NCBI GenBank assembly: GCA_949045875.1
Contig: CARPYP010000002.1
Coordinates: 36,063 to 100,062, forward strand
Source: an uncultured Clostridia bacterium
Lineage (GTDB): Bacteria; Bacillota; Clostridia; TANB77; CAG-508
Length of the DNA stretch: 64,000 nt
Direction: 5' to 3'
Shown here: piece after piece, positions 7,693 to 57,352 of the stretch
How the letters are laid out: each line of letters starts with the position of its first letter
Position numbering within the stretch: the stretch's first letter is position 1
The notes under the pieces: model-generated
Told to the model about the DNA's origin: nothing
Seen by the model: the letters and a program-made list of their open reading frames with translations, nothing else
The model's database searches: none
Program-made: the position numbers and the translations under genes

Positions 7693-7740
7693 CCTAAGAT
7701 TTTCTAGCAAATGAAAATTCTAAGAAAATCTTAGGCTCGG
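7693..7740. promoter_or_regulatory. Perfect 13-bp stem hairpin (CCTAAGATTTTCT / AGAAAATCTTAGG) upstream of the dac gene. Acts as a terminator on the minus strand
   Basis: Direct reading. A U-run follows on the minus strand. Confidence 0.5.
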
Positions 7741-7793: not shown

Positions 7794-8258
7794 ATGTATA
7801 TAAAAAGATTAATATTTATTTTTATAGTTTTATTTTTTGTATTATTTTACTCCTGCTGTTCTTTTGCCTCTACTTATGAATATATTTGGTCAACTGTCGC
7901 AGATACAAATTCTGGTAATTCGTCTATCGCTGTGTCTTCTGACTTAAATAGTGGTTCTTTAAATTTAGAATCTACTGGTGCAATTTTAATTGAGCAATCT
8001 ACTGGACAGATATTGTATGAACAAAATTCTCATGAAAAATTACGTCCTGCAAGTGTAACAAAAGTTATGTCTATTTTACTAATAATGGAAGCTTTAGATA
8101 GAGGTGAAATCGCTTTAGATACTTTAATTCCATGTAGTGAAAATGCAAGGTCTATGGGTGGTTCACAAATATGGCTAGATACTAGAGAAACTTTAAGTGT
8201 AAATGATATGTTAAAAGCTATATGCGTAGTATCTGCTAATGATTGTAATGTTCAATAG
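7794..8258 (+). pseudogene. 5-prime part of a split sporulation-type D-alanyl-D-alanine carboxypeptidase (PBP5*/DacF/DacB-like), interrupted at the SAND motif
   Basis: Signal peptide, SxxK motif (ASVTK). Ends SANDCNVQ-stop right at the SxN motif. The continuation is found at 33180. Confidence 0.85.
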
Positions 8259-8375: not shown

Positions 8376-9978
8376 TTAATCAAGTGTTGTAGGTAATCTT
8401 TGCCTATCTATATCTTTAAATTTGTAATGGATATAAATAAAACCTTTTCCTAATTCAATTTTTGTAATTAATTTTTCTATATCTTCACTTGTTAAAGATT
8501 CATTTGTTAATGATTTTATAATCTTCTTTACTTTATTTGATTTCCCTATATTTATATTTTTATCCTCAAATTTCTCTATTTCTTGTTCAGTATAATTCTT
8601 TTCATTATTATATTGTTTTCTTTCTTTTAATAGGTATTCATATTGTTTTTTATAGTCATCCTCACTAATTTCTTCATTTAATCTATCATTATATAATTGT
8701 GATATTTTAAATGTTGTTTTTCTTAATGCCATTTCTTGCTCTTTATATTTCGACTCTAGTTCTTTTAGTTTTAAATTGTTATATTTTTTTAATGTTCTTA
8801 ATTTAACTGTATTTTCTTTAAAGTATTCCTCAAATGATTTTTGTATATGATTAATAATAAGTGGCTCAATTTGTTCATAAAAGTAATTATCTGAAAAATC
8901 ACAAAGTTCTTTACTATTTCTATTACTACTACAATGGAGATTTATCTTTCCTCTTGAATTTCGTTTTTCTATTCTTTTACCACAATAATAACAATAAATA
9001 TATTTTCCGAATTTGGTTTCTATATTTTTAGAAATTTCTCTTGTGATTCCCCATGATTTACTATTACTATGTACTTTATCATATATTTCCCTTGTTATTA
9101 TTGGTTCATGTGTATTTTCTACTACAATAAAATCTTTTCTCTTTACATTTATTCTCTTTTTGGTTTTATAACTAATATTTTGAGTTTTTCCTCTAATACA
9201 ATCACCTAAGTATACTCTATTACTTAATATTTTCCCTATAGATGCTCTTGTCCAAATTTGAGATATATCTGTTGATAGACCTTTTACTCTTAAATATTGA
9301 GCTGGCGTTTTAATATTTTTCTTATTTAGATATTCTGATATCTCCTTTTGTGTTAATCCTTTTAGCTTTAATTCAAAAATCATTTTTACAACTTTTGCTG
9401 ACTCTTCATCTATAATAAGTTTTCCTTGTTCATCTGGATTCTTCTTATATCCATAAGGAGGTGTATTGCAAGCATAAAATCCTTCTTGCATCTTTTTTCT
9501 TTTGGAGTTTTTTACACTTTTAGATGTTTCCTTACAAAACATTTCGTTAAAAACTCCTCTTATTGGAACAAAATCATTGGATACTTTGTCTTCAAAATTA
9601 TCTACTTTATCTAATATAGCTATGTATCTTACATTTTGATTTAGAAAAATTCTTTCTATATACTCGCCTGAATCTATATAGTTTCTTCCGAAATCTTGCT
9701 AGATTCTTTGTGATTACTAAATTAATTTTTTTATCTTCTATATCTCGTAACATCTCTTTAAATCCAGGGCGATTAAAATTAGCTCCTGTATATCCATCAT
9801 CTGTGTATTCATAACAATGTTCAAAAACAAAATTTTCATTTATAAAATCATAGATAATATTTCTTTGATTTCTAATACTCTCACTTTCTTCTCTATCTCC
9901 ATCATCTTTACTTAATCTCATATATAATGCAATGTTACTGATTTGCTGCTTGCTCATGTATATTAAAATACCCCCCAA
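8376..9978 (-). pseudogene. Large serine recombinase. Catalytic domain at 9607-9978, recombinase/zinc-ribbon/coiled-coil part at 8376-9542, split by a +1 frameshift near 9688-9690
   Basis: IYMRLSKDDGD and ESESIRNQR resolvase motifs. Removing one C restores NLARFGRNYIDSGEYIERIF... continuous with the downstream ORF. Confidence 0.75.
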
Positions 9979-11581
9979 TGCAATTTAATTCATAAAAGTT
10001 AAAATGTATTAGAATATTTTTGTCTTTATCTATTTCTATTTTATTAACTATCTGTTGTAATGTTTCTTTAGAAAAATTTTTATTTTTAACTATTTGTTCT
10101 AATGTATTTTTCATTTTCTCTTCAATTTTCTTACTATCAGATTCGTTTTCAAAACATTGTAATTCTTCTTCAGTTTCAGATTTGATTTTTTCTAATCTAT
10201 GTCTTTCATTTAATAATCCTTCTGAAAATAGTGAGTAATCTTGTTCTTCTATAATCCCATTTAATTTATCCGAATATAATGTATTTAGCTTCTTATTTGT
10301 ACTTTCTAGCTCCTTTGTAACACTATCCAATTTTTCTGCAATTTTACCTTTATTACTTTTTGCCTGTATTAATTTTTTTACTGCTTTTTCATTATCAAAA
10401 ACTTCTGAATTTAAAAATTGCTCAAATATTTCAGCAATTTTTTCTAAAATTAATGGTTCAACTTTGTTATAATTTATATATTGTTTATAGCATTTCTTGT
10501 TACTTACTGCTCTAGCTGCTGTAGAACATATAATGTATTTTCTTATTGTTATTTTGTCTTTATATTTATCTTTTTTACTTATTATTCCTAATCTATTATG
10601 ACAATGAGCACAATATAATAATGATTTTAAAAGAGGATCTTCTTGTCTGATTTTTTCACCTTTATGATTTTCAAATATCATTTGAACTGCATCCCAAATT
10701 TCCTTTTCTATAATAGGTTCATGATGATTTTCTATATTTGTATGTTCATTTTCTGGAAGTGCAATTATTTTCTTACTCTTATAGCTTATCTTTTTAGTTT
10801 TGTTTTGTACTACTTTTCCTATATATATTGGATTTGTTAAAATTCTCTTTATTACGGTATGAGTCCATATATTAGTAGTTTCAGTAAGATTATTCATTAC
10901 TGTTTTCATTTTCATTTGTAACCCTGGTGTAACAATCTTTTCTTCGGTAAGTAATCTAGAAATTTGATATGTTCCCTTACCTTTTAGGAATTCGTCAAAT
11001 ATTCTTCTAACTATTTCTGCTTGCACTTCATCTATCTTTAATTTTCCAGATTTATCAATTTTTTTATAACCAAATGGTGCATATGATATATAATAAAATC
11101 CTTCTTTCTTTTTTCTATTTTTTGTTTTCTTTATGTTCTTAGATGTTTCTTTTGCATAGTAGTCATTCATTATATTCTTAAATGCTGCTGTATCACAATT
11201 TCTATCTAAAAATGTATCAACATCATCTAATACTGCTATATATCTAATTTGATGTTCTGGAAAGTATGTTTCTATATATCTTCCTGTTTCTATATAATCT
11301 CTTCCAAGTCTTGCTAAATTTTTTGTTATCACCATGTTTACTTTCTTCATCTCAATATCTTTCAATAATCTTTTAAATCCAGGTCTATTGAAATTAGTTC
11401 CACTATAACCATCATCAACATATTCGTCATACAATAAATATCCATTTTCTTTAACATAGGTTTTTAAAATTTTTCTTTGATTTGTTATACTTTCGCTTTC
11501 TTCTTTATCACCATCATCTTTACTTAATCTCATATAGATTGCTACATTATATGTTGTATTAATATTATTTTCTACATACAT
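9935..11581 (-). CDS. Large serine recombinase (intact, 548 aa)
   Basis: Resolvase N-terminal domain (YMRLSKDDGD, ESITNQR), recombinase domain, Cys-rich zinc ribbon, coiled-coil C-terminus. Confidence 0.9.
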   Translation of the reverse strand: MYVENNINTTYNVAIYMRLSKDDGDKEESESITNQRKILKTYVKENGYLLYDEYVDDGYSGTNFNRPGFKRLLKDIEMKKVNMVITKNLARLGRDYIETGRYIETYFPEHQIRYIAVLDDVDTFLDRNCDTAAFKNIMNDYYAKETSKNIKKTKNRKKKEGFYYISYAPFGYKKIDKSGKLKIDEVQAEIVRRIFDEFLKGKGTYQISRLLTEEKIVTPGLQMKMKTVMNNLTETTNIWTHTVIKRILTNPIYIGKVVQNKTKKISYKSKKIIALPENEHTNIENHHEPIIEKEIWDAVQMIFENHKGEKIRQEDPLLKSLLYCAHCHNRLGIISKKDKYKDKITIRKYIICSTAARAVSNKKCYKQYINYNKVEPLILEKIAEIFEQFLNSEVFDNEKAVKKLIQAKSNKGKIAEKLDSVTKELESTNKKLNTLYSDKLNGIIEEQDYSLFSEGLLNERHRLEKIKSETEEELQCFENESDSKKIEEKMKNTLEQIVKNKNFSKETLQQIVNKIEIDKDKNILIHFNFYELNCIGGYFNIHEQAANQ

Positions 11582-17221: not shown

Positions 17222-17480
17222 TTCTCTTTCTTAATTTTTATTAATTCATTATATTGCTGATCAGTCTTTATAATAAATTGTATATACTAATTATATTTAA
17301 ACTTTTTTATTAAATAAGAAAAAAAGATTAATGTAGTTAATTGTGGTTGTTTATATATTAATGTGGTCTTTAATAATTATCTTTCTTCAACCATATAAAA
17401 CCTTTTTTATCCATTTTTTAATTTTTTACTTAATAGATGCATTATTATTTTATTATATCCTAAAGAAAGGAGGGTTTCAT

Positions 17481-18062
17481 ATGGCATTATTCACAAAATT
17501 ACTTATTAATAAAACCAACAATGTATATAACATTTATGATGAAGACAAAAATAACCAATTAGTAGGTAAACTAAATCCAAGAGAAGCATATGTCGTCTAT
17601 GGTGGAGAAGGAGATTTTGTAGGGATTAACTTTTTAAATTCTTCAGGTGTATTTACAAGTGCTACTGTTAATATTTACAAGCATCCTCTTCCTGGCGATG
17701 TCAGTGGTTCATATTATCCAGAAGCAGGACTATGCAGTAATTATCCTTATGGTACTGCAAGTATTAAAGATCCTAAAGATGGAAAAGTTGAGACATATAA
17801 AGTATATAAAATGCGTTCTAAGAAAGAAATAATAAAACCAAAAGGTGGCCATTGGGGATATGTCGCAGCTGGTTGTCTCGTTGCTACTAATACTGCTACT
17901 GTTGGAGCAGATAAACCATATTTTAAAGCTATCGATTATGTCCAAAGTTCTGCTGGTGAATGGGTTAGAGTTACTGGTGATGGATTGAGACATGGTTTTG
18001 TTGATACTGGAATAAGAAGTTCATCTGGCTATTCTAAAATAGCTTTTTATGGTTCTTGGTAA
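17481..18062 (+). CDS. Hypothetical small protein, paralog of 29022-29549 (shared WVRV.GDG...GFVDTG...SKIA C-terminus)
   Basis: AAGGAGG RBS before ATG at 17481. Internal paralogy. Confidence 0.55.
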   Translation: MALFTKLLINKTNNVYNIYDEDKNNQLVGKLNPREAYVVYGGEGDFVGINFLNSSGVFTSATVNIYKHPLPGDVSGSYYPEAGLCSNYPYGTASIKDPKDGKVETYKVYKMRSKKEIIKPKGGHWGYVAAGCLVATNTATVGADKPYFKAIDYVQSSAGEWVRVTGDGLRHGFVDTGIRSSSGYSKIAFYGSW

Positions 18063-18300
18063 ACTTTAATTAACAAATATAAAGAGGTTTTTCTGTAATA
18101 AATAGGAAAACCTCTTTTTAATTTGGATATTTAATAATTAGATTTTATTAATGAATCGACTATCAACAATAAAACACCACATTTATCTTTCTTCTAAATT
18201 TTGTTATCAAACATTCTTTATAATATTATTAATATTTATTAAAATTCTGATCAGAAACATAATGAATATAAAAATTTTATAATTGAAAGAAGGTTTTTTT

Positions 18301-20211
18301 ATGGCAGATATATTAGTTGAAAAAACTCAACAATGGCTTAACGAAACTTATCATGGTAAACAAGGATATGGTGAAGATATTGTTGTTGATGGAATTACTG
18401 GCTGGGGCACAGTTCATGCACTTCTTAGAGCTTTCCAAATAGAATTAGGTATTACAGCTACATCAACTTCTTTTGGTCCTTCCACTACATCAAAATTTAA
18501 AGCAAGATTTCCTAATGGTGTACAACAACAATCCTCAGACGATACAACAGAAGATAATATATATGGAATTATTCAAGGTGCTTGTTTCTGTAAAGGTTAT
18601 TCAATAGGCTCAAATGATATAACTAATCATTTTTACTCTGGAACAGGTTCTGCAATTACTTCCATAAAAAAAGATGCTGGGTGCTCAGATACGAGTTCTA
18701 CGGTTACCCTTAATATGATGAAAGCATTACTTTCTATGGATCAATTTAAACTTGTACGTGGTGGAAATAGTAATATTAGAGAGATTCAACAAAAACTTAA
18801 TAACAAATACGAAAATTACATTGGATTAACACCTTGCGATGGAGTTTATAGTAGAGAAATGAATAAATCTCTTATAGCTGTACTCCAAAAAATAGAGGGA
18901 TTTACTGGCTCAAATATAGATGGCAAATTTGGCAATGGTACTAAATCACGTTTACCTATTGTCCCTAGTAATGGTAATCTTAATAATGAGACTGAGCAAG
19001 ATGCAATAGAACTTGTTAGATATGCATTAGTATGTAATGGTTATCCAATAGATGTTGGTATAAATTCTAATAAATGGGATTCATTCTTGGGCAATACTAT
19101 TGGAAGGTTTCAAAAAGATATGATTTTAGAGGAAACAAATATATGCGATACTAACACTTGGATGGCTTTATTAGTAAGTACAGGTAATCAAGATAGACCT
19201 TACAATGCCATCGATACAGCATATACTATCCATAGTGAAATTCGTGATATTAATAGAGTAGATATTGTGAAAAATTTAGGAGTGTCTATTGTTGGAAGAT
19301 ATATTAGTGGTAATAAAGGAAAAGAGTTGGCATTTGATGAAGCTAAAGGTATGTTAGATAATGGTATAAACTTTTATCCTATATATCAAAGAGATGGTGA
19401 ACCAAGCATAAGCTACTTTACAGAGTCTCAAGGATGGAAAGACGTTCAAGAAGCATACTCAAGAGCAAGAAGTTATTGTATTCCTAAGGGAACTATAATT
19501 TATTTTGCAGTTGATATTGATATGCTTGATAATCAAATAGAAAAATACGCCCTTCCCTATTTTAAAGCAATTGATGGAGGTTCTACATATTATAAAGTTG
19601 GTGTGTATGGAACTAGAAATGTTTGTTCACGTGTAATGGATAAAGGATACGCAACAACTTGCTTTGTTAGTAATTCTTCTTCTGGATATTCTGGTAATAT
19701 GGGATTTAAAATGCCTACTAATTGGAATCTTGACCAATTTCAGACAAATGTTAAAATAAGTGATAACTTTGCAATAGATAAAAATATTTTCTCTAATAAA
19801 TTTCCTGTTGTTACTGAGTTATCTCCAAGAGATTATTACTACGGAACTGTTTTATTAGAATCTGGACATCTTGTTGGTAGACAGCTTAAATATGCAGGTA
19901 GAAAATTAAACTTATCTATTCAAGCAAGTGGTGAGAATGGTGAAAAATATGATAATATGATTGTTGATGTATGGTTTAAGAATGTTGAACCATTTGAAGA
20001 TTGGGCTTGCACAAAAGGACATGTTGTTGCTAATGTAGATAATAAAATATATAATTTATCATCTACTCAAGATAACGACTCCATATTTATTAATGATACA
20101 ATACCTTATTATATTGAATATGATGTTTTTAGAATAACTGATACTGGTTATGTTAGAGTTACAGATAAAAAAATTAAAATTACTACTACTGTTAATGCTT
20201 ATTATTTATAA
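18301..20211 (+). CDS. Paralogous PG-binding plus DUF1906 hydrolase-like protein (divergent copy of 15317-17221)
   Basis: Same domain order. VGRYISGNKG...IIYFAVDIDM...YKVGVYGTRNVC. Confidence 0.6.
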   Translation: MADILVEKTQQWLNETYHGKQGYGEDIVVDGITGWGTVHALLRAFQIELGITATSTSFGPSTTSKFKARFPNGVQQQSSDDTTEDNIYGIIQGACFCKGYSIGSNDITNHFYSGTGSAITSIKKDAGCSDTSSTVTLNMMKALLSMDQFKLVRGGNSNIREIQQKLNNKYENYIGLTPCDGVYSREMNKSLIAVLQKIEGFTGSNIDGKFGNGTKSRLPIVPSNGNLNNETEQDAIELVRYALVCNGYPIDVGINSNKWDSFLGNTIGRFQKDMILEETNICDTNTWMALLVSTGNQDRPYNAIDTAYTIHSEIRDINRVDIVKNLGVSIVGRYISGNKGKELAFDEAKGMLDNGINFYPIYQRDGEPSISYFTESQGWKDVQEAYSRARSYCIPKGTIIYFAVDIDMLDNQIEKYALPYFKAIDGGSTYYKVGVYGTRNVCSRVMDKGYATTCFVSNSSSGYSGNMGFKMPTNWNLDQFQTNVKISDNFAIDKNIFSNKFPVVTELSPRDYYYGTVLLESGHLVGRQLKYAGRKLNLSIQASGENGEKYDNMIVDVWFKNVEPFEDWACTKGHVVANVDNKIYNLSSTQDNDSIFINDTIPYYIEYDVFRITDTGYVRVTDKKIKITTTVNAYYL

Positions 20212-20411: not shown

Positions 20412-21248
20412 ATGAAAAAATTTAATTTACTAAAACTAATAATAATTATTATATTTATCATTATTATATTATGTATTTTTGTAACCTTAAAGTTAATTCT
20501 AAATAAGGTTTTGTATATTAATGATACTTCAAATTATACCCCCCATGATAATGTTACTACACATACAGATATATCAAACATTACATTTCAAGACTATACT
20601 GAAAAGGTTAAAGGAATCATATTTTCATCATATAATGGTACTAACACAGAATATAATTATAATATTCTAAGTATAAAAAATGATTATATGATTTATAATG
20701 ATCATATTGTTTGCGATATCCCTAACTATACTTTTTTTACTTTATATACTCCTTTAGATATTGAAATTTTAAGTTATACTAACTCTTGCACAATATCATT
20801 TGATGATATTGAAGAAAATGACATATTGATTTATAATGGTACAATTTCATATTCTACTAGTAATTCATCTCCTAACATAGCAAAAATTAATGGCGATTTA
20901 CCTATATATATACTAAAAGAAAATGAATTGTCAGAACTTATCCTAAATGAATATAATGATAAAAAGGAATTATCAAATGTACATATTAGATATCAAACTC
21001 CATATCTTGAAGATTTCAATGTTACTTATTTATTTGCAGAAATAACTTATATATCATCTAAAAATGATAAATTTATATATCCGATAATTCTCGAAATATC
21101 TGAAGATACTATAGTGAAAAATAATAATTTGAAAACAGAACTTCATGAAGTATATGCGAATATAGTATTAAAAAATTCTTTTGAAATTTCTGAAACTTCT
21201 GCAATTTATAACGTTAAAAAGATAAAAGAAATTACATATAAAAACTAA
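20412..21248 (+). CDS. Hypothetical membrane-anchored protein
   Basis: N-terminal TM helix, GGAGG RBS. Confidence 0.5.
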   Translation: MKKFNLLKLIIIIIFIIIILCIFVTLKLILNKVLYINDTSNYTPHDNVTTHTDISNITFQDYTEKVKGIIFSSYNGTNTEYNYNILSIKNDYMIYNDHIVCDIPNYTFFTLYTPLDIEILSYTNSCTISFDDIEENDILIYNGTISYSTSNSSPNIAKINGDLPIYILKENELSELILNEYNDKKELSNVHIRYQTPYLEDFNVTYLFAEITYISSKNDKFIYPIILEISEDTIVKNNNLKTELHEVYANIVLKNSFEISETSAIYNVKKIKEITYKN

Positions 21249-21325
21249 CTCTCAAAATTCTCGACAAAAAGTAGATTTCATAGCATAAAAAATTATATCA
21301 GTACAAATAGTACTGATATAATTTT

Positions 21326-22384
21326 TTATTTTATTATAGATGCCTTACCAAAATATGTTTTAAACGCACTCCAGTCATATGGTTCTATCATTAAATTCAT
21401 TACTGGATAATTTATTACCCAAATACTATAATCATGTAATATCTCGTGTGCTTCAAAGCACTTTTCAATATCACGTTCATCAAGCCCTTCTTTCAATAAA
21501 TTACAGAATTTTTCTAAATCTCTTTTAGTTTCTTCATCTTTTATAATTTCAACCTGTTTTTTTACCTCTTGTAATACTTTTATTAACCTATCTCCATTAT
21601 ACACTTTTGTTCCTGTTATATTATCTGTAAATACCTCATCATAAATTTGTTGTCTCCAATAATAGCTTGTTTTCTCTTTTAATACCCATGTACTTTCACC
21701 TAATATACTCTCCATCATACATTGATAATCGTATATGGTTTTCTGTAGCTCTCTTATTTCGTTTTCATTTAAACCTGTTAATGCTTTTTCTTTTGCTTTA
21801 TAGCATATATCTTTATTAGGTAGTTCTAAATTACTTTTATGAAGATAATACTTTGGTTTTTCAAAACCATATAATTCATAATATGCTCCACCATTTACAG
21901 TAAAATTAACTTTCAAATCGCCTTTTATTAGTTTTATATATCCTAGCTTTTCTTGCATTTCGGTTACATGTATAGCTTCTAACTCCAGCCTAGTAGTACT
22001 ATCTTTGCCTTTAATATCAATACCCAAATAACAACATTCTATATTTTCATCTGTCTCAGTCCATGTAGCATTATGTAGAATTCTTACTAACTCTAATATT
22101 AAATCGCTATCTGTATAAATATCTGTCTTTTGGTCTTCTGTTTGGTAATTTATTAATTTTATTTCTGATATATCTCTAGGTAAATAATTAGAAATATCGC
22201 TTTTTTCCAACAGTTTATTTATTTCTGCGTTTGTGTCTTTTACTTTTTCATCTTCTTGATTAAAATTAGACTCTTCTTTTGATTTTTCTTCTTTTTTCTC
22301 ATTTATCCCTTTCATGGTTACTATTCCAATAATACCACTTATTATTAAAATTATAACTATAAATATAATTACCTTCTTTTTCAT
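21326..22384 (-). CDS. Hypothetical exported or membrane-anchored protein
   Basis: N-terminal hydrophobic segment. 352 aa ORF. Confidence 0.5.
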   Translation of the reverse strand: MKKKVIIFIVIILIISGIIGIVTMKGINEKKEEKSKEESNFNQEDEKVKDTNAEINKLLEKSDISNYLPRDISEIKLINYQTEDQKTDIYTDSDLILELVRILHNATWTETDENIECCYLGIDIKGKDSTTRLELEAIHVTEMQEKLGYIKLIKGDLKVNFTVNGGAYYELYGFEKPKYYLHKSNLELPNKDICYKAKEKALTGLNENEIRELQKTIYDYQCMMESILGESTWVLKEKTSYYWRQQIYDEVFTDNITGTKVYNGDRLIKVLQEVKKQVEIIKDEETKRDLEKFCNLLKEGLDERDIEKCFEAHEILHDYSIWVINYPVMNLMIEPYDWSAFKTYFGKASIIK

Positions 22385-22425
22385 ATTTCTCTCCTTATTA
22401 TTTCCTATATTTAACTTAATATTTT

Positions 22426-23133
22426 TTATATTTTATTCAATACTGTAAAAATTACTGTCTTTGCTGTTGGCTTCTTATCATCATAAAATCCAAAATATCT
22501 TTTTAATCTTTCACTATCACATTCATAATACATACATTCTGTTGCTCTAGTAATATCACATTTTATATTATGTATAGGTTTATTGTGTATTTTTGATATT
22601 ATCGGATATACATCTTTTTGAAGATTATCTAACATAGCTTCTCTATTTAAATATATTTGAAGAATTGCATCTACTAAGTATTTAGTACCTATATGTTCTA
22701 TATTATATCCTATATATCTTAACTCATTAATTATACTTTTTCGTTTTATCTCCAAGTCTTTGCTTATAATCATCCTATTAATTTTATATAATATTTCATT
22801 ATTATCATCATCTTTAGCTGAGTAATCAAATATCATTTTATTTCCTATATATTTTTGCACTTCTTTGAGATTTCTTGTAGTTAATATTATAGAGTCTCTA
22901 TATTTGTCTTGTTTTTCTATCTTAATCATATCAAATATCGTATCTCTATTATTTCTAATAATATTTAAGTCTACTAAAGCTACATCTATATTCTCATTAT
23001 TTAAAATATCTATTGTTTCTTTTTCATTCATTGCTATTTTTTCTATTCTTATATTTTTATTTTTTGTTACTACTTCATTTATTAACTTTTTTAGTTTTAA
23101 TACATCTCTATCGGCTATTAGCATATTAACCAT
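22426..23133 (-). CDS. Spo0A-like protein: degenerate receiver domain plus Spo0A C-terminal DNA-binding domain
   Basis: VALVDLNI receiver aspartate region. C-terminal GTKYLVDAILQIYL...VYPIISKIH...ITRATECM resembles Spo0A_C. Confidence 0.55.
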   Translation of the reverse strand: MVNMLIADRDVLKLKKLINEVVTKNKNIRIEKIAMNEKETIDILNNENIDVALVDLNIIRNNRDTIFDMIKIEKQDKYRDSIILTTRNLKEVQKYIGNKMIFDYSAKDDDNNEILYKINRMIISKDLEIKRKSIINELRYIGYNIEHIGTKYLVDAILQIYLNREAMLDNLQKDVYPIISKIHNKPIHNIKCDITRATECMYYECDSERLKRYFGFYDDKKPTAKTVIFTVLNKI

Positions 23134-23276
23134 TTTATCACCCCACTATAATACTATTAATTAGATACACTATATTGCTTTTGGGTTTCAAATTCGTTTT
23201 ATTTTTTTTTATCTTTTTGTATTTATTTATATATTCGTTGATATAATTATTAAAACTTTACAAAGGGGGTGTATTA

Positions 23277-23702
23277 ATGAAAAGTCTAGTTACGAAATTA
23301 TGTACATCTATATTAATGTCATTTTTATTGGTATATCTATTTATTTGCTCTACTCCAGTTAATGCCTCAAGTCCATATAGCATTCAGCCTTATGCATACT
23401 ATTCTACAGGTTCTTTTCAATTTAAAGGTAGTAGTAGACCAATTACTAAAAACTATGATGGCACTTTTATGGCTATTGAAGCCAAGTCTACATCAGCATC
23501 TGGAAATATTTACGATGTAACAATATATGTAACCATTGCTAGTCGTAAAGTTACTAATAAATATACAATATCTACAAATGGTTCATCAAAGAAATTTGAC
23601 TACATATTTTTAGGTTTGTCTGGTTCTAGTGATGTTTCTATTGAATGTAAATGTAATTCTTCGGATACTATAAACATAGAATTAACATCCTATAGTTGGT
23701 AA
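23277..23702 (+). CDS. Small secreted hypothetical protein
   Basis: Signal peptide, GGGG RBS. Confidence 0.5.
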   Translation: MKSLVTKLCTSILMSFLLVYLFICSTPVNASSPYSIQPYAYYSTGSFQFKGSSRPITKNYDGTFMAIEAKSTSASGNIYDVTIYVTIASRKVTNKYTISTNGSSKKFDYIFLGLSGSSDVSIECKCNSSDTINIELTSYSW

Positions 23703-23711
23703 TATTAAATT

Positions 23712-23750
23712 ATCTAGGCATTTCTGCCTAGATTTCCTTTTTATATAACT
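23712..23750. terminator. Bidirectional terminator
   Basis: TAGGCA-TTTC-TGCCTA hairpin with flanking T-run. Confidence 0.6.
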
Positions 23751-25116
23751 TTATAACTTCATTTTTATTTTTTAATACTAATTGTTTGTAATTATCTTCT
23801 AATTTTATATCTGATAAAATTAAATAATAATATATTTCTTCACTGTTATACGAACTTAATAGCCTATAATTACATTTATTTTTATAATACTCATCTATTT
23901 CTAATGTAAAATTTACATCCATACTTTTACTCTTTATAATAGCATAAAAACCTGTTTCTGTTATTATAGCCTTTTGAATATTATATTTATTGTTATCTTC
24001 ATATTCTGTAATATATTCAATAGTATTGGTATTAATAAATTTTTCATCTATGTCGATATATATCTTCTTTTCATTTTCATTAATTATTTTACTGTCTTTG
24101 CTTGGATTATTACTATTATAAATCATAACTTTAGAAAAAGTTATTTCTAATTTTTTCATATTGAAATTTCCATTTGATATCATATAGTTTAACTCTCTTA
24201 TATTGGTGTTTGACTCAGTTTCTATATTCTTCCATCCTTCTAATTGAACTATAGTTTCTTCCATTAGATCTTTATTATTAAATATAATATTATTATTTTC
24301 ATCTTTAATCGTTAAATCTATTATGCTCATTCTATCATATTCATTCAAATCTTCATCCGATTTTAAGTCATAAATCATATACATATTAATATCATCAAGT
24401 AATAAGTAATCAATTCTTATTTTATATCCTTTGTCTAACTCTATATAGTCCATTTCAATATTCTGTACCCATTCTTTTTCCTCTATTGCCATCAATATTC
24501 CATCATTATTTTGTCCTATACTACTTAAATTAAAAATACCTTTTAAATAATTTATTATGTCTTTTCCAAATGTTATTCCTGTTGTTACAATTCCTAAGAT
24601 TACAACTATCATTATAATCTTCTTATATGTAGAATTTACTTTTTGCCTTCCTCTACGTAACTTTGTTTTAATAGTATTTGGATTAATTTTTAGAATTTTA
24701 GATATATCTTCTATTGAATATTGTTCTTCATAATACAGTTTAAAAATATTCTTTTCAATATCATTTAATTCTTGTATTAGAGTATCAAATTCTAAAGATT
24801 CATCTTTCGTATTTTTGTTTTCTAAGTTTTCTTTATATCTATTTTTCATATTATCTTCATATTTTTTATTTCTGTAGAATCTATTACATTTATTAATTAA
24901 TATTTTAATAAGCCATGTTTTAAAATATTTATTATTTCTTAATTGACCTATTTTTAAATATGCATTTATTATGGTTTCTTGAATTACATCTTCTATATCA
25001 TCATAATCCCTAATTCTTTCTTTTGCAATTCTATATAACTCTTCTTTCATATCCGTTATTAAGATCATATAAGAATCTTTATCTCCATTTTTTACCCTTT
25101 TTACTAATTCTTCCAT
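23728..25116 (-). CDS. ECF-type sigma-70 factor fused to a transmembrane segment and a large C-terminal extracytoplasmic domain (sigma/anti-sigma-like fusion)
   Basis: Region-2-like DVIQETIINAYLKIGQL and region-4-like SIEDISKILKINPNTIKTKLRRGRQ. Then TM helix IIMIVVILGIVTTGITFG plus about 270 aa. Confidence 0.6.
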   Translation of the reverse strand: MEELVKRVKNGDKDSYMILITDMKEELYRIAKERIRDYDDIEDVIQETIINAYLKIGQLRNNKYFKTWLIKILINKCNRFYRNKKYEDNMKNRYKENLENKNTKDESLEFDTLIQELNDIEKNIFKLYYEEQYSIEDISKILKINPNTIKTKLRRGRQKVNSTYKKIIMIVVILGIVTTGITFGKDIINYLKGIFNLSSIGQNNDGILMAIEEKEWVQNIEMDYIELDKGYKIRIDYLLLDDINMYMIYDLKSDEDLNEYDRMSIIDLTIKDENNNIIFNNKDLMEETIVQLEGWKNIETESNTNIRELNYMISNGNFNMKKLEITFSKVMIYNSNNPSKDSKIINENEKKIYIDIDEKFINTNTIEYITEYEDNNKYNIQKAIITETGFYAIIKSKSMDVNFTLEIDEYYKNKCNYRLLSSYNSEEIYYYLILSDIKLEDNYKQLVLKNKNEVIKLYKKEI

Positions 25117-25224
25117 TAACTCACCTTTTATTAGATAATATTTCCTTAAAATAGTTTTACCTCTTTTATTATATTTTAATTTTACTAAAAAGTAAAATAT
25201 AACTTTACATATTTCGTAATATAT

Positions 25225-25638
25225 TCAGTGTATTTTTATATCTTCTACTCCAGCAATATATAATCTTCTAATAGTTTCTTCGTATGAAATTAATGCCTCA
25301 AATGATTTTATAATCCCCTTATTATTTGTTAAATCAAATCTTTTAATATACTTTTTTATTTTATGCTTTAGTTTTTTATATTCTTTTAATTCCTTATTCT
25401 CACCTATTTTGGACTTCCTCATAATATTATCGTTTCCCCATATAGAATTAACTTTTGCAATTGTTATACTTTCATTCAAATATATCATTCTTTGAAAGCT
25501 TTTTATCATATCATCCTTTTTATCTCCAATTTGCATTAAAAAACATATAATTGTTTCTTCTTCTTCTAAATGAAAATATTTGAATCTTTTTATTCTATTA
25601 TCATTAGATAATAAATTATAAATTAAACTTTTGGCCAT
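25225..25638 (-). CDS. Hypothetical protein
   Basis: ORF only. Confidence 0.4.
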   Translation of the reverse strand: MAKSLIYNLLSNDNRIKRFKYFHLEEEETIICFLMQIGDKKDDMIKSFQRMIYLNESITIAKVNSIWGNDNIMRKSKIGENKELKEYKKLKHKIKKYIKRFDLTNNKGIIKSFEALISYEETIRRLYIAGVEDIKIH

Positions 25639-25795
25639 CTCTTCTCCTTTTCGTATTTTAATACGATTTTATTTTAGCACATTTCGATTTTTGTTGCAAA
25701 TTGTCGGCTCTTGTAATATTTTCATTCGTATTATAATATCTTAATTTTTACTTTCACAATTGATATAATTTATAAAATGAGTTAGGAGGAAATAT

Positions 25796-26140
25796 ATGCA
25801 AAGTATTGACGAAAGTAATTTTAAAAAAAATGTTGGTGAAAGAATTAAGAAATATAGAGATGTTACACAGGAAGTTTTATCTGAGAAAGCACAAATTTCT
25901 TCTGATACTCTTTCATTAATAGAACGTGGAGAGAATACAGCTTCTAGTTTAACTTTAGTAAAAATATGCAATGCATTAAATACAACTCCAAATCACATTT
26001 TAAAAGAATTTATTTCTAATAAATCTGAATGTATGGATTCTATTCTTCTCGATGAAATATCACATCTTACAGTAGAAGAAAAGGATTTTATATTATATAC
26101 AATAAATTTCATTAAACAGAATAAACAACTAGGACAATAA
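25796..26140 (+). CDS. XRE-family HTH transcriptional regulator
   Basis: LSEKAQISSDTLSLIERGEN HTH_3 pattern. AGGAGG RBS. Confidence 0.75.
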   Translation: MQSIDESNFKKNVGERIKKYRDVTQEVLSEKAQISSDTLSLIERGENTASSLTLVKICNALNTTPNHILKEFISNKSECMDSILLDEISHLTVEEKDFILYTINFIKQNKQLGQ

Positions 26141-26204
26141 TAATTTTCATGATTTTGAAACTTTTTTTCTTTACTTAGTATCTAAATACTAAGAGGTGTT
26201 TTTT

Positions 26205-26537
26205 ATGAACTTATCATATCCCCTTTTTCAACATTTTATTCAAAAACATGGCAAAGATAACCTATTTGATATTATTAATACTATATTAAATGAATTTGAT
26301 AGTAATATATTAATTAACTTTGATATTCCATTAGAGAAATATGTTCAATTCATATTTGCAATTGCTACAGCAAAATTTCTTAACTTTGACGATTATAAGA
26401 GAATAATATTGTTAAATAGTTCTTCTAAAGACTTGCTTCTTTATGATTATTTTAAATCTATAAATGCTGTTAAACTTCATTCTAAGTCAATTTCAAAAAT
26501 CATATTTTTTCTTAAACAGGATTTTCCTAATCTTTAG
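26205..26537 (+). CDS. Hypothetical protein
   Basis: ORF with AAGAGG RBS. Confidence 0.4.
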   Translation: MNLSYPLFQHFIQKHGKDNLFDIINTILNEFDSNILINFDIPLEKYVQFIFAIATAKFLNFDDYKRIILLNSSSKDLLLYDYFKSINAVKLHSKSISKIIFFLKQDFPNL

Positions 26538-26584
26538 GGAATTATTTTCTATGCTTTATTTAATTATACATTTATCACATATTA

Positions 26585-26953
26585 TTAATTATTATTCCAT
26601 TCATATTTACACAATACTGTATATATAATGGATTTCAAACTAGGTTTTGTATTTTCTTCTATGTTAAAATATTTACATATTTTACTCTCTTCTGTATTAT
26701 TATACATAGTCCTTACAGATTGTTCTATACACCACTTAACATTGGATGGCGACTTCTCTTTATATTTTTCTGCAATAAAAGGGAATACATTTTTATGTAA
26801 ATTTTCTATAGCTTCAGCATCCTTTATACATAAATATATTGCCTCATTAAGATATCTAAATCCTTTTGTATATTTTCTAAAACTAAACTTTGATAATTCA
26901 TTTAGTATAAATTCTTTTGTTCTCTTGTCCTCCATTCTATTCCTCCTCAACAA
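26585..26953 (-). CDS. Stand-alone Spo0A C-terminal-domain-like protein
   Basis: GFRYLNEAIYLCIKD...VFPFIAEKY...VKWCIEQSVRTMY resembles the Spo0A_C DNA-binding domain. Confidence 0.5.
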   Translation of the reverse strand: MLRRNRMEDKRTKEFILNELSKFSFRKYTKGFRYLNEAIYLCIKDAEAIENLHKNVFPFIAEKYKEKSPSNVKWCIEQSVRTMYNNTEESKICKYFNIEENTKPSLKSIIYTVLCKYEWNNN

Positions 26954-27728
26954 TTAATTTTTGTCCTATTTGGATAAAATTAGGATTATCACCTATTGTT
27001 TCTTTATTTAAATTATAGATTTCTTTCCAGTTTGTATTAAATTTTTTTGCAATTTTAGTAAGAGTATCACCAGATTGCACTACATAGATATTATTTTTTT
27101 CAGTTAATAAATTTAGTTTAGCATTTCTTATTATAGACGGATAATCTCTCAAGTCATAGTTTAAATCTACTTTTCCAGCTATTCCAGATATATTTCCATT
27201 AGATGAATATTGCCACATTCCAAATTCCTTTTTATACTTACAACTATTTGACCACTGAGCTACCCATTTATCAAATTTGTCTAATCTACTGTCATTTATT
27301 TTATTATTTAACCAATCTAAATTAGCATAAATTCCCACATAATAGCCAGCATTTTCTATGCGATTGCAAAAAGTCTCACATATATCAATACAAGTAGAGT
27401 AATTTACTTTATTTTGTGATTTATAATTATCTGCATCCTCCATATCAATATAAATAGGATACTCCAACTTAAGATCTTTTACTGTATCTAAAACAAACTG
27501 TGCTTCCTTTAAAGCATCATTTGTATTAAGAGCATAAGAGTATATATATACTCCTATTGGAATTCCTTGCTGAATGGCTTTATTGTAATTTTCATAAAAT
27601 TTTTTATCAATATGATTCTCTTTTTTTCTATATCCTAGTCTTAATATAATAAATTCTATTCCACTTAACTTCACCTCTGACATATCTATAGTGCCATTGT
27701 GATATGATAAATCAATACCTTTCTTCAT
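26937..27728 (-). CDS. Endolysin: GH25 muramidase with C-terminal LysM domain
   Basis: GIDLSYHNG..., YIYSYA, DxE-type GH25 pattern. C-terminal LysM (YVVQSGDTLTKIAKKF...). Confidence 0.85.
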   Translation of the reverse strand: MKKGIDLSYHNGTIDMSEVKLSGIEFIILRLGYRKKENHIDKKFYENYNKAIQQGIPIGVYIYSYALNTNDALKEAQFVLDTVKDLKLEYPIYIDMEDADNYKSQNKVNYSTCIDICETFCNRIENAGYYVGIYANLDWLNNKINDSRLDKFDKWVAQWSNSCKYKKEFGMWQYSSNGNISGIAGKVDLNYDLRDYPSIIRNAKLNLLTEKNNIYVVQSGDTLTKIAKKFNTNWKEIYNLNKETIGDNPNFIQIGQKLIVEEE

Positions 27729-28316
27729 ACTCCTCCCTCCTATATTGCTTTATTATTTTATAGTGATTTTACTACATTCTTACAATATTGCATAAAAAAT
27801 GGTGTTGAATGTAATAAAATGTATAGTAATGTATAATAGTGTAAAATTCTTTACATAATTTCAATCCTAAAACTTTTTATCGTTTTATTTTTACAAAATC
27901 ATGTAAATTAATTATTATATTAAAAGTATTGAAGTAACTTTTTCGGTAACATATAAAAATAAAAACTCTGTATAAACTTCTAAATTGATTATAACTGTTT
28001 TTTGTAAATACAAAAAGAGACGAATCTCGCCCCTTGTACATAAGAAAATTGTTATTTTAATTGAATTTAAGTGTAAAATTTATAAAAATAAATGTTTTAA
28101 TTCTTTACTTATTCATGACAAGAACTCAATTAAAGGTAAGACTAAGGCTCATAATCAATATCATATTCTTAATTTACTTACTAATATATTGCCTTTTCAC
28201 CATCACAGTTATTATATTTAGTATATAGTATAAATTATGTAAATATCGAAAAAGATAAAAAAAGATACTTTTTTCACACAGTAACAGAAATATTATATAC
28301 CATTCATAAAGTGCAA

Positions 28317-28790
28317 TTATTTCTTATTCTCTAAATTAGTTATTGTATTATCTATTATTTTTTGATATTGCTCTAATCCTTTTTTTAGAAACTCTGGAAC
28401 ATTTATACCAATTTCAATTAGATTTTCTATGATACTTCTAGATTCATTTATTATAAGACAAGCAAGTGTAAACCAGCCAAAAAGCATAATAAATTCTAAA
28501 TTAATGTTAATTTTATTTCCTAATTGTACTAGTAAATATGATATAAAAAATGATACCCCTATAAGAATCCAATAACAAATTTTTTTAACCACCCCAACTA
28601 ACCCTCTATTAGAACTCTCAGCTTTTTTTACCTTAGCTTTTATAGTTCCTGTAAAATAATCCACTAGATTCAATAGCAAATATCCTGCAAACAATACCCA
28701 TTCAATTCCAAATATTGATGTGAGTATTGTGCAAATGCCACTTATTGTAGTAGTTGTTTTATTAAATATTTTTAACATTTCTTCTTCCAT
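28317..28790 (-). CDS. Phage holin (TcdE / phage_holin_4_1-like)
   Basis: 157 aa, three TM segments, charged C-terminus. Lies upstream of the endolysin. Confidence 0.7.
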   Translation of the reverse strand: MEEEMLKIFNKTTTTISGICTILTSIFGIEWVLFAGYLLLNLVDYFTGTIKAKVKKAESSNRGLVGVVKKICYWILIGVSFFISYLLVQLGNKININLEFIMLFGWFTLACLIINESRSIIENLIEIGINVPEFLKKGLEQYQKIIDNTITNLENKK

Positions 28791-29021
28791 AAGATTTCCT
28801 CCTTTTTAATCGTAATTTACAATAAAAATAGCAACATATTAAAAAAAATTGCGTTTTATAGTGAAAAATAGAGTATTTTTAAGATAGTTATTTCTAATAT
28901 TAAATTTTTATACACTTTAATCAACTTTACAATTAAATTCTAAAAGAATAGATATAATATCACCATACTAATCATCTGATCAGATTTAGCAAAATTTTAC
29001 ATATTTAGAAGGGAGAAAATT

Positions 29022-29549
29022 ATGAGTCAAATTTATATTGGTATAAATAATACTAAAAATACCTATATAATAAGAGAATATCCTATACTATCAAACAAAA
29101 TAGTAGGAAGATTATACCCTAATGAACTTTGTATTTGTAATACAGAACATAATGAAGTTGTAGCATTTAGAAACTCAAGTGGTGTAATAACTTCTGGAAT
29201 AATCTCCGATCAAACATTTTACCATGCAGGTATTAATCAGCTTCCTTATGCAATAGAAAATATTGAGGGTAAAGACTATAAAATTTATCGTATGAGAAGA
29301 AGTATGCCAGTTTATAAAGCAGGTCAAAATAGTGATCGTTGGGGAACAGTAGCAGCAGGAATGTATGTAGCTACAGATACTTGCACACCAGGACAAAAAC
29401 ATAGTGATTGGATGAAAGTTACATATGTAAAAAGTACAAAAGGTAAATGGGTTCGTGTTTCAGGAGATGGCGTTGATTATGGCTTTGTTGATACAGGCTT
29501 CAGTCAAGCATCTGCTGGTAGCAAAATAGCATTACAAGGTAATTGGTAG
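29022..29549 (+). CDS. Hypothetical small protein, paralog of 17481-18062
   Basis: Shared C-terminal motif WVRVSGDGVDYGFVDTGF...SKIALQGNW. Confidence 0.55.
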   Translation: MSQIYIGINNTKNTYIIREYPILSNKIVGRLYPNELCICNTEHNEVVAFRNSSGVITSGIISDQTFYHAGINQLPYAIENIEGKDYKIYRMRRSMPVYKAGQNSDRWGTVAAGMYVATDTCTPGQKHSDWMKVTYVKSTKGKWVRVSGDGVDYGFVDTGFSQASAGSKIALQGNW

Positions 29550-29643
29550 TATCTTTTATTAATAATCAAAAATCTCATTCGTCAAGAATGAGATTTTTGA
29601 TTTACAATTGAAAATTATAATTTAAATTAAAATTAATAATGCT

Positions 29644-30336
29644 CTATTGCTCAACATAGTATCTTACCATTGAAATAACACATTTAGGGCTAGGGCTTTC
29701 ATATTCACCTAATCGTAAAAATTTCCTTACTTTTTCCTTGTTAGCATATAACCACATTTTATTAACTGCTCCTTGAATATCAGCTTTAATTGTATATGAG
29801 CTTTTTTCTTCTAATTCTGCTAATTCATCATAAATTATCTTTAAATTTTCCTGTTTTTCTTTAGTTGATATTTCAATACATTCTTTAATAAATTGTGTTC
29901 CTTTATGCTCAGCTCTAAATCCCATTTTAAAGAGTATTTCGTAAATTTTTTTATCCAATTCTTCGTTAGCAATATTTTTTGCAATCTTCTGAATTTCTAA
30001 TCCAACATTTTCATAGGATTCAACTTTATTAAATACTTTCTCTACACTCTTGAATTCCAACACTCTAGCCATATGATTTGTCTCTTCTGAGTATATAATA
30101 ACTCTTGTTTTTAATGTAATATCATTTTCTATCTTTCGTAAAATATCAAATTCATCTTCCGTTTGTAATTTTAAATCAAGTATAACAATTTCAGGCTACA
30201 ATAATTTTATTGTTTCATAAACTTTAGTTTCATCATTAATAATAGATACTGCTTGAGCAGATTTCGTAAAATTAATCACATTTGAAAGATGTATACTGAT
30301 TGGCATATTATTCTCAGCAATAAGTACCTTAACCAT
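29644..30336 (-). pseudogene. Spo0A-like gene broken by an in-frame TAG at 30197-30199. The Spo0A_C part (142 aa ORF) remains
   Basis: Upstream frame encodes a receiver domain MVKVLIAENN...KLL-stop-PEIVILDLKL... continuous with the ORF. GGGAGG RBS at 30337-30350. Confidence 0.6.
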
Positions 30337-30424
30337 AATACCTCCCTATTATAACTATAATAAAATTTTATCATACTTTACATAAAATGTAATATAATCG
30401 CCTTATTGTTTAAATTATCTTTTC

Positions 30425-31147
30425 TTATTTTTTTGTCGAATTTTGTCGTATTTCATTTATAATTTTCTCTCCCCCTGGATGTATATATCTATCTGTTGCA
30501 TTAGACGTTTGTCCTAATGACTTTTTTAGCATCATATCAGTATAACCTTCTTCATATTTATTAGTAGCGAAATCATGTCTAAAAATATGTGGATTAATAC
30601 TATTTTCATTAATTTTTTTACAATACTTTTCTAACATTTTATTAACCATACTTCTATCAATCTTTTTCCCTGTTTTTACTGATTTGTTACTTATAATTAA
30701 GTACTTATTTTCTCTTCCATCTAATTGTTTATTCCTTATAGGTAAATATTCCTCCAAAACATCAAACATAGCATTAGTTATTATAATTTCTCTGATTCTA
30801 TTTCCTTTTCCCCATATAGTAATTTTACGCATTTCTAAATTAATATCTCTTTCTAACTGTATATTTATTACTTCAGAAACTCTTAAACCTCCTTCATGTA
30901 TAAAAACTAATATTACTTAACCTGCATCTGTTAATAACTTAGCACTAATCTTTATATTCGATAAACCATATTTTAAATTATTGTAAAATTCTTTTAAATT
31001 TGCTTCTGACTTTGTCCTTTCTTCACATGAAGTAACTATTAAATAATTTTTTCTAACGTATAAATCTTCCTCTTGCATAATATTTTCTAGGTATTCTATA
31101 ATACTTCTTCCATAATCAATCATTTTTTCATTTTTTTGCTTTTGCAT
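30425..31147 (-). pseudogene. Tyrosine recombinase/integrase remnant with an in-frame TAA at 30917-30919 and further upstream stops
   Basis: GLRVSEV box I, HIFRHDFAT and TDRYIH catalytic motifs. The frame is continuous across the stop. Confidence 0.7.
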
Positions 31148-56466: not shown

Positions 56467-57352
56467 ATGTACGATTTAGAATATAAAATAATTGATAATA
56501 GATATTACAATATAAAACAAATTATAAAAGAAGAATTTAATATTTCAGATAGATTATTAAAACGTTTAAAAACTAATAATAAAATATTTTTAAATAATCA
56601 AATCATAAATCCTAATTTTACTAATCTTAATGTTGGTGATATAGTTTCTATTACTTTCAGTTTTGATGAAGAGTATGATAATATTCTTCCTGTTAAAATG
56701 GATTTAGATATAGCTTTTGAAGATGACTATTTATTAATTATAAATAAGTTGCCAAATACTCCTGTTCACCCTTCTTGTAACCACTTTTCTGATAGTTTAT
56801 CTAATGGAGTAAAATTCTATTTTGATTCTATTGGACTAAAACGTAAAATTAGAATTGTTAATAGATTAGACAAAGATACTTCTCGGTCTTGTAATCTTTG
56901 CAAAGAATGAATATATACAAGAATGTCTAATTCGTCAAATGAAAAATAACTATTTTAAAAAAGAATATATTGCTGTTTTAGATGGGATTTTATCAGAAAA
57001 ATCTGGAACAATATCTGCACCTATTGCTAGAAAAGATAATAGTATAATTGAAAGATGTGTTGATTTCAAAAATGGCGAAATTGCAATAACCCATTATGAT
57101 TTAATTAAAAACATTAATAATTCTTTGTCTTTAGTTCATTTTGTACTTGAGACTGGACGAACACATCAAATACGTGTACATTCTGCTTATATTGGTAATC
57201 CTATTGTTGGAGATACCCTTTATGGTAATTCATCTGAATTAATAGATAGACAAGCCCTTCATTCATATAAGATTACATTTATTCATCCTATTACTAGAGA
57301 AAATATGATATTAGAAGCGGATTTACCTAAGGATATGAAAGTATTCTTCTAG
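56467..57352 (+). pseudogene. RluA-family pseudouridine synthase split by a +1 frameshift at 56884-56886
   Basis: RLDKDTS motif then stop. Removing one C gives RLDKDTSGLVIFAKNEYIQECLIRQMKNNYFKKEY... joining ORF 56939-57352. Confidence 0.8.

Follow-up and report, generated by a model that had tools for sequence, protein, structure and literature searches.

Three diverged Spo0A_C families on integrative elements of uncultured gut Clostridia, more likely regulators of the elements than Spo0A mimics

The sequence analyzed here (the window) is a 64,000-nucleotide stretch of contig CARPYP010000002.1 from an uncultured Clostridia bacterium, in which a mobile element interrupts a DD-carboxypeptidase gene. 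Three minus-strand open reading frames (ORFs) of this element, within the region 21.5-31.5 kb of the window and labeled A, B, and C, carry the C-terminal DNA-binding (effector) domain of the sporulation regulator Spo0A (Spo0A_C, PF08769). A sequence-only reading had proposed that the three proteins mimic Spo0A and compete for its binding sites, the 0A boxes. Here it is proposed, with a probability of a little under 60%, that they represent three long-diverged families of the Spo0A_C fold, conserved as accessory or regulatory genes in a group of integrative elements of uncultured gut Clostridia. Because their DNA-reading helices differ from that of Spo0A, regulation of the element itself is a more likely role for the three than mimicry of Spo0A.

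Gene A (22426..23133, minus strand) encodes 235 amino acids (aa) with a degenerate (pseudo-)receiver followed by a Spo0A_C domain; gene B (26585..26935, minus strand) encodes a stand-alone Spo0A_C domain of 116 aa; and gene C (29644..30336, minus strand) is a pseudogene of a 230 aa receiver plus Spo0A_C regulator, of which a 142 aa ORF (29644-30072) remains. The ORF of B as listed begins with TTG at 26953; its actual start is the ATG at 26935, matching public gene calls. In the Pfam profile search, with gathering thresholds of 25 bits for PF08769 and 30.2 bits for Response_reg (PF00072), Spo0A_C was found in A at 43.2 bits (E 4e-11, residues 135-235), in B at 53.1 bits (ORF as listed, 26585-26953), in the 142 aa ORF of C by itself at 38.8 bits, and in C read through its stop at 37.4 bits. 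The Response_reg matches fell under the threshold for A (15.4 bits) and just under it for C read through (27.3 bits), and precomputed PF00072 hits exist for most C orthologs and some A relatives. In the AlphaFold2 (AF2) model of A (pLDDT 87.7), the C-domain superposes on 1lq1_C, a chain of the Spo0A-DNA complex, with a TM-score of 0.81 and a root-mean-square deviation (rmsd) of 2.0 Å, and the N-domain has a CheY-like fold with TM-scores of 0.69-0.76 to receiver domains. The significant PDB matches of the B model (pLDDT 93.4) are seven Spo0A effector-domain chains only (TM-score 0.82-0.89). Superposition of the models with the Spo0A effector domain gives rmsd values of 1.5-2.0 Å, the identity in the structural alignments is 23-28%, and Foldseek matched the six-helix effector fold to 1lq1 and 1fc3. 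The homology of A, B, and C to the C-terminal domain of Spo0A is real, and the three are predicted to share its effector-domain fold. The sequence-only reading had this part right: its homology claim could have failed in the profile search and came through at every gene, the predicted folds agree with it, and the architectures are as it had described them, namely two proteins that join a receiver-like part to Spo0A_C, of which one is interrupted by a stop, and one lone domain.

The Spo0A equivalog model (NCBIfam TIGR02875, spore_0_A) has a curated cut-off of 200 bits for the whole protein, which was not reached by A (37.2 bits), B (39.4 bits), the C remnant (22.5 bits), or C read through (32.9 bits), and the NCBIfam profiles matched by the receiver parts are generic (NarL-, CheB-, and PhoP-like) and not Spo0A-like. 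True Spo0A orthologs keep every DNA-contacting residue from Bacillus to C. difficile and recognize the same TGTCGAA box (PMC3485338). The families were aligned to a B. subtilis Spo0A sequence with SRVERAIRH numbered 210-218, the C-terminal part of which agrees with the PDB alignments. Compared with the Spo0A recognition helix SRVERAIRHAIEVAW, those of A HNIKCDITRATECMY, B PSNVKWCIEQSVRTMY, and C YTIKADIQGAVNKMW in the window do not show the conservation seen among orthologs. In family A, position 213 (E in Spo0A) is K or R, R214 is C in 43/43 members, and position 217 (R in Spo0A) is N, R, or T. Family B has K for E213, W for R214, and C for A215, each in 44/44, with E, D, or N at 217; the change at A215 was noted for this family only. 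Family C has K for E213 in 30/30, A, S, or G for R214, and Q, R, or N at 217. At 213, K is found in A, B, and C of the window as well as in almost every family member, and R217 is mostly lost. A survey of 172 domains out of the 150 best superfamily representatives found the buried helix positions 212, 216, 220, 223, and 224 conserved and the exposed positions 210, 211, 213, 214, 217, 218, and 221 highly diverse, with the Spo0A-like combination E-R-R/K at 213/214/217 in only 15 of the domains. This looks like the pattern of a DNA-binding family with diversified targets. Scores, helix, and context led to the rejection of A, B, and C as spo0A of the host itself or as copies recently derived from it.

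The homolog search gave 47 clusters for family A, all of about 230-250 aa, 46 for family B of about 115-120 aa, and 31 for family C, 30 of them intact at 229-247 aa; P0095 is an example of an intact family-C protein. Members are named only as 'hypothetical protein' in their sources, which are metagenome-assembled genomes (MAGs) of Clostridia, and 11 species-level MAGs from uncultured gut Clostridia contain relatives of B. In profile-profile comparisons, B and the C-domain of A share 29% identity, B matches C with an E of 7e-9, and A and C share 21% identity at full length, which shows the three families to be related and their divergence old. The ratio of nonsynonymous to synonymous substitution rates (dN/dS) against the sister element is lowest for B (0.04), followed by C (0.20) and A (0.29). 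Both A and B are intact and identical across independent assemblies, and each family has its own fixed recognition-helix residues, unlike those of Spo0A. Purifying selection conserves each of the families. The receivers were judged by D10, D11, D56, T86, and K108 (B. subtilis numbering). Family C keeps these five catalytic positions in 29-30 of 30 members, the window copy being D11N and truncated, whereas in family A D10 is kept in 9/43, D11 in 6/43, T86 in 2/43, and K108 in 13/43, and B has no receiver domain. The B profile finds 1,756 representative clusters. Among the proteins of the wider superfamily, P0150, P0152, and P0209 (439-468 aa) and P0155 (1003 aa) have three or four tandem Spo0A_C domains, an architecture of which we know no description.

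The families A and B also have conserved partners among the element genes. Immediately upstream of B lies a gene for a lysin with GH25 muramidase and LysM domains (26937..27728, minus strand; Pfam and PHROG endolysin families), which ends 1 nt before the ATG of B and contains, in the last codons of its 3' end, the Shine-Dalgarno sequence GAGGAGGA, and B appears to be translationally coupled to, or co-translated with, the lysin. B directly follows the lysin gene in 9/12 diverged loci, and the holin of the same cassette (Phage_holin_4_1, PF05105; 28317..28790, minus strand; Pfam and PHROG) is within about 6 kb of B in 11/12. The partner of A is a gene for a 462 aa sigma factor of the extracytoplasmic function (ECF) type (23728..25116, minus strand; Sigma70_r2/r4_2, DUF4179, and NCBIfam ECF families) that has a transmembrane segment and is extended at its C-terminus by a DUF4179-like part; it is predicted to be membrane-tethered with this part on the extracytoplasmic side. 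This sigma gene (451-462 aa) adjoins A-family genes even at 50% identity and is also present in loci L019, L029, and L032. Downstream of A by 41 bp, the ORF list has a gene for a membrane-anchored protein of 352 aa, p352 (21326..22384, minus strand), which is probably co-transcribed with A and has the same arrangement with it in the sister elements L009 and L022. The sequence search also gave a hairpin terminator at 21285-21329, and a terminator-like site at 28035-28015 separates the holin from the lysin-B unit; these sites suggest three transcription units, namely holin, lysin-B, and A-p352. Between B and the sigma gene, a gene for an XRE/HTH_3 regulator (25796..26140, plus strand; Pfam HTH_3) is kept in L009, L019, L022, and L029. 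Near the holin and lysin genes there are also two paralogous proteins of 634 and 642 aa with PG_binding_1 and Rv2525c_GlyHyd-like domains (15317-17221 and 18283-20211), as well as two paralogous small proteins with an SH3-like C-terminus (17343-18062 and 29022-29549).

In the proposed mechanism, A and B would bind DNA sites specific to their families rather than 0A boxes and would control the transcription of the element's cassette of lysin, holin, sigma factor, and secreted hydrolases. B would be expressed together with the lysis/hydrolase cassette, and A may act as a phosphorylation-independent regulator tied to the membrane-tethered sigma factor. The C protein of intact elements may be phosphorylation-dependent and put the recombinase or the behavior of the element under a host-kinase signal. 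Several points weigh against this proposal. The search for direct and inverted repeats as operators in 21200-31000 gave no motif, and the GC-containing 8-10-mers shared upstream of holin, lysin, A-like, and sigma genes in up to 13 loci were ribosome-binding sites only, apart from a few k-mers common to 2-3 close relatives. An altered recognition helix is formally compatible with the binding of 0A-like sequences, and it is possible that A and B regulate host genes. The role of E213, R214, and R217 as the base-contacting residues of Spo0A is an assumption here, reportedly a finding of Zhao et al. 2002 and backed by the invariance among orthologs and by the superfamily survey.

Regulation of host genes is the core of an alternative akin to lysogenic conversion, by which A and/or B bind novel sites on the host chromosome and reprogram host genes, not necessarily those of sporulation, for the benefit of the element. 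B comes directly downstream of the lysis genes, where conversion genes are often found in temperate phages, and the conserved recognition helices proper to each family and the strong purifying selection on B would suit this alternative as well. It is unlikely, however, as B appears to be co-translated with the lysin instead of being independently expressed, no host target can be named, and the families travel with the same element genes over diverged hosts, which targets within the element would explain more simply.

Spo0A mimicry, by which the effector domains of the element would bind 0A boxes, activate or block host Spo0A targets, and so tune the sporulation decision, is rather improbable. 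In its favor, A and B have the same predicted fold as the Spo0A effector domain, which when isolated binds its targets without phosphorylation (PMC3485338), and sporulation genes (SpoIVA and SpoIIM) are found above cut-off in the host lineage. It also has a published basis, in the same hypothesis for truncated spo0A genes borne by phages (Schwartz et al. 2023, PMC10294663), and a precedent, in an intervening element that shifts the timing of sporulation (PMC10747680). Against it, the invariant helix residues of Spo0A are replaced in all three families, in each in its own conserved way, the scores are 22-39 bits against the 200-bit equivalog cut-off, and the conserved linkage is to element genes and not to any sporulation context. 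Nor was an enrichment of 0A boxes seen, with 2 occurrences of TGTCGAA in the 64 kb window against 1.5 expected, and the competition for 0A boxes put forward by the sequence-only reading is not borne out.

Gene C contains one in-frame TAG only, at codon 47 (30196-30198 in the translation of 29644-30336), so that the single stop claimed earlier exists, one base off the position given for it (30197-30199). The 30 intact orthologs have E or K at this codon (GAA in L009 and L022, AAG in L012), and at the place of the window's AENN all C orthologs read AEDN or AEDD; the acidic pocket of the window copy has changed from D to N. A sequencing error was rejected as the origin of the TAG, since the stop is fixed in the independent assemblies L001, L002, and L004, which share it. 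The Shine-Dalgarno sequence at the original start of C is GGGAGG, whereas the ribosome-binding site of the internal ATG at 30072 is weak. The 142 aa ORF was likewise rejected as a designed product, its Met being unconserved in the orthologs and its Shine-Dalgarno sequence weak. What had been described as a DNA-binding-only ORF does exist and does match Spo0A_C, but it is a pseudogene remnant of the nonsense-mutated 230 aa gene; codon 47 is E or K in the orthologs, every one of which is intact.

Beside C lies a fragment of a Xer-like tyrosine recombinase (30425..30832, minus strand), a C-terminal 135 aa with matches only to the C-terminal part of the XerS, XerC, and XerD profiles, and C in the window is a fixed pseudogene beside a truncated recombinase. 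An intact recombinase of 298-310 aa is directly upstream of C in L009, L012-L014, and L022, and the arrangement of recombinase then C is kept at both 87% and 53% identity. By comparison with L009 (8979-9911), the window keeps the C-terminal 135 aa of a 310 aa recombinase; at least 9 kb found upstream of it in sister elements (HU, pP_pnuc, a group II intron, and others) are absent, and the fragment adjoins pilin and replication-initiator genes.

A speculative extension of the role proposed for C is that, in intact elements, it is phosphorylated by the orphan sporulation kinases of the host and thereby senses the commitment to sporulation and switches recombinase, transfer, or lysis genes, with A and B as phosphorylation-independent partners with their own operators. 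This would be a mobile-element copy of the Spo0A signaling logic rewired to new DNA targets, and it is a doubtful one. Interference at the protein level is very unlikely. Here the receivers, especially those of family C, would be phosphate sinks or decoys for host orphan kinases, or the effector domains would titrate the sigma contact of RNA polymerase, DNA binding being secondary. The five catalytic positions kept in family C would allow it, neither the element nor the sister loci, to a distance of 10 kb, showed a histidine kinase gene, and orphan kinases phosphorylate clostridial Spo0A directly (PMC6136694). However, with C a pseudogene and the receiver of A degenerate, this mechanism would be inoperable in the window, the receiver matches are of the generic kind, and the conservation of the helix within each family speaks for the importance of DNA binding.

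The element is 24.9 kb long and is inserted in the gene of a PBP5-type DD-carboxypeptidase, at the codons of the SxN active-site motif. The junction core ATGATTG is found on the plus strand at the left (8239..8245), in the N-terminal part of the gene (7794-8258), and at the right (33173..33179), in the C-terminal part, which extends to 33960; when the cores are joined, the product is a protein of 410 aa whose alignment to PDB 4k91 is free of gaps over the SxN motif. The NCBIfam matches of the split gene are generic only (DacA/DacC/DacD/PBP5-type), no spoIIA or spmAB synteny was found in the gene content of the window, and inspection and a scan with CATANNNTA for a sporulation-type promoter upstream of the split dac gene were uninformative. 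The element had been said to sit in a sporulation gene; a mobile element does interrupt a host gene, and the sporulation-specificity of that gene is unproven from its sequence. A long hairpin (7693-7736) with stems of about 12 bp (CCTAAGATTTTC...GAAAATCTTAGG) is found in the 660 bp that separate the split dac gene from the gene upstream of it.

At the left end, the element has an intact large serine recombinase gene (9935..11581, minus strand; NCBIfam CcrB/CcrC/XisF-like) and, nearer to the junction, a second, frameshifted one (8376..9978, minus strand), comprising ORFs of 123 aa (9607-9978) and 388 aa (8376-9542), with a CcrB-like match limited to the C-terminal part. The other cargo includes a pilin-like gene of the type IV secretion system and a HTH_36 replication initiator, and profile matches to the gene content of the element revealed no capsid, tail, or terminase genes. 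The sister elements L009 and L022 match the window element in gene order, but their recombinase (310 aa) and their C are both intact, and upstream of these lie further genes, among them HU and a group II intron. Contigs CAOKMR010000001.1 and ERZ15043491 NODE_198 carry sister elements. In more distant relatives there are genes for a type IV secretion coupling protein, PcfJ/K, SSB, ERF, and SpoVG. The window element is a reduced derivative, with its tyrosine recombinase truncated, C nonsense-mutated and D-to-N substituted, and the second serine recombinase frameshifted, and the elements as a whole look like a mosaic of conjugative and phage-like parts. The same three lesions could suggest that A, B, and C are all decaying, functionless remnants in a degenerating element, which is hardly tenable with A and B intact and identical in independent assemblies, dN/dS of 0.29 and 0.04, and a strong ribosome-binding site kept by B.

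Elsewhere in the window, an RluA/RluD-type pseudouridine synthase gene is split just after its RLDKDTS motif (56467-56910 and 56939-57352), either as a frameshift pseudogene or by an assembly error, and the ORF at 1318-2004 has a doubled 13-residue N-terminal segment (MKFHIDKKISKIE twice), a sign that a short stretch of DNA was duplicated in tandem at the gene's 5' end.

The presence of Spo0A_C genes on mobile elements is already published, and A, B, and C add members of a known, uncharacterized kind. PF08769 is enriched on mobile elements of gut Firmicutes (Jiang et al. 2019, PMC6907783), and truncated spo0A homologs occur in human-gut phages, for which hijacking of sporulation was hypothesized (Schwartz et al. 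2023, PMC10294663). The divergence of the recognition helix was not found addressed in the available parts of these papers. Viral collections hardly represent the three families: IMG/VR gave one match at 34%, A had no match in curated phage records, B matched unannotated fecal phage contigs at only 23-27% and, in addition, a true spo0A carried by a Paenibacillus replicon, and the C receiver had only chance-level matches in curated plasmid records. In PHROGs, the matching families are phrog_24603 and phrog_37855, both of unknown function, B matching phrog_24603. New here are the recognition helices, which argue against a simple competition for 0A boxes, the existence of receiver-bearing Spo0A_C paralogs on mobile elements, and a conserved gene partner for each family, which suggests experiments.

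The Spo0A_C domain has been said to be what 'uniquely distinguishes Spo0A' (PMC6136694); contrary to this assumption, the domain, even when fused to a receiver, is not diagnostic of Spo0A. Calls of spo0A by Pfam in MAGs and viromes, as used for sporulation capacity or 'sporulation hijacking', will catch these paralogs. The published idea of host-sporulation control is to be weighed against the simpler alternative of ordinary element regulators with their own specificity. The comparison of recognition helices can serve as an inexpensive first filter, and concrete experiments follow from the conserved pairing of lysin with B, sigma with A, and recombinase with C.

Compared with Spo0A itself (TIGR02875; receiver plus PF08769; 1LQ1, 1FC3), the window proteins resemble it in the predicted effector fold (rmsd 1.5-2.0 Å, TM-score 0.8-0.9), in the domain order of A and C, and in the canonical receiver of family C. 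They differ from it in the replacement of E213, R214, and R217, in the degenerate receiver of A and the lack of one in B, and in their location on a mobile element beside lysin, sigma, and recombinase genes instead of a chromosomal sporulation locus. The genes of Schwartz et al. 2023 and Jiang et al. 2019 are of just the same kind as B, an effector domain alone on a mobile element of a gut Firmicute. Indeed, B is an element-borne, stand-alone effector domain, with Spo0A_C only in its 116 aa, within a 24.9 kb insertion that also has recombinases, holin, and lysin. The difference from those genes is that two of the three window proteins have receiver-like domains and that the element here is without capsid, tail, and terminase genes.

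The element also resembles those of the skin/SPbeta/gin/yin type (PMC5025042, PMC4191935, PMC5595907, PMC10747680) in that a coding sequence is interrupted, a large serine recombinase lies at the end adjoining the 5' part of the split gene, and precise joining at a short core restores the frame. In contrast, the gene split here is, as judged from genes alone, a generic PBP5-type one. No Spo0A_C genes turned up for the yin element in the available part of its description (PMC10747680), the one skin-like element covered in this respect.

The gene content further resembles that of clostridial toxin and bacteriocin loci. Such loci, e.g., the C. difficile PaLoc with TcdR and TcdE, combine an alternative sigma factor with a PF05105 holin and the remnant of a lysin, and to our knowledge, none of them has a Spo0A_C regulator. 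The likeness, which is drawn from genes alone, is in the alternative sigma factor, Phage_holin_4_1 holin, lysin, and large secreted proteins, whereas the sigma factor here is of the ECF type with a membrane segment and not of the TcdR family, and the cargo consists of peptidoglycan-binding, hydrolase-like proteins. By this analogy, the cassette of sigma factor, holin, lysin, and putatively secreted hydrolase-like proteins recalls holin-dependent export loci.

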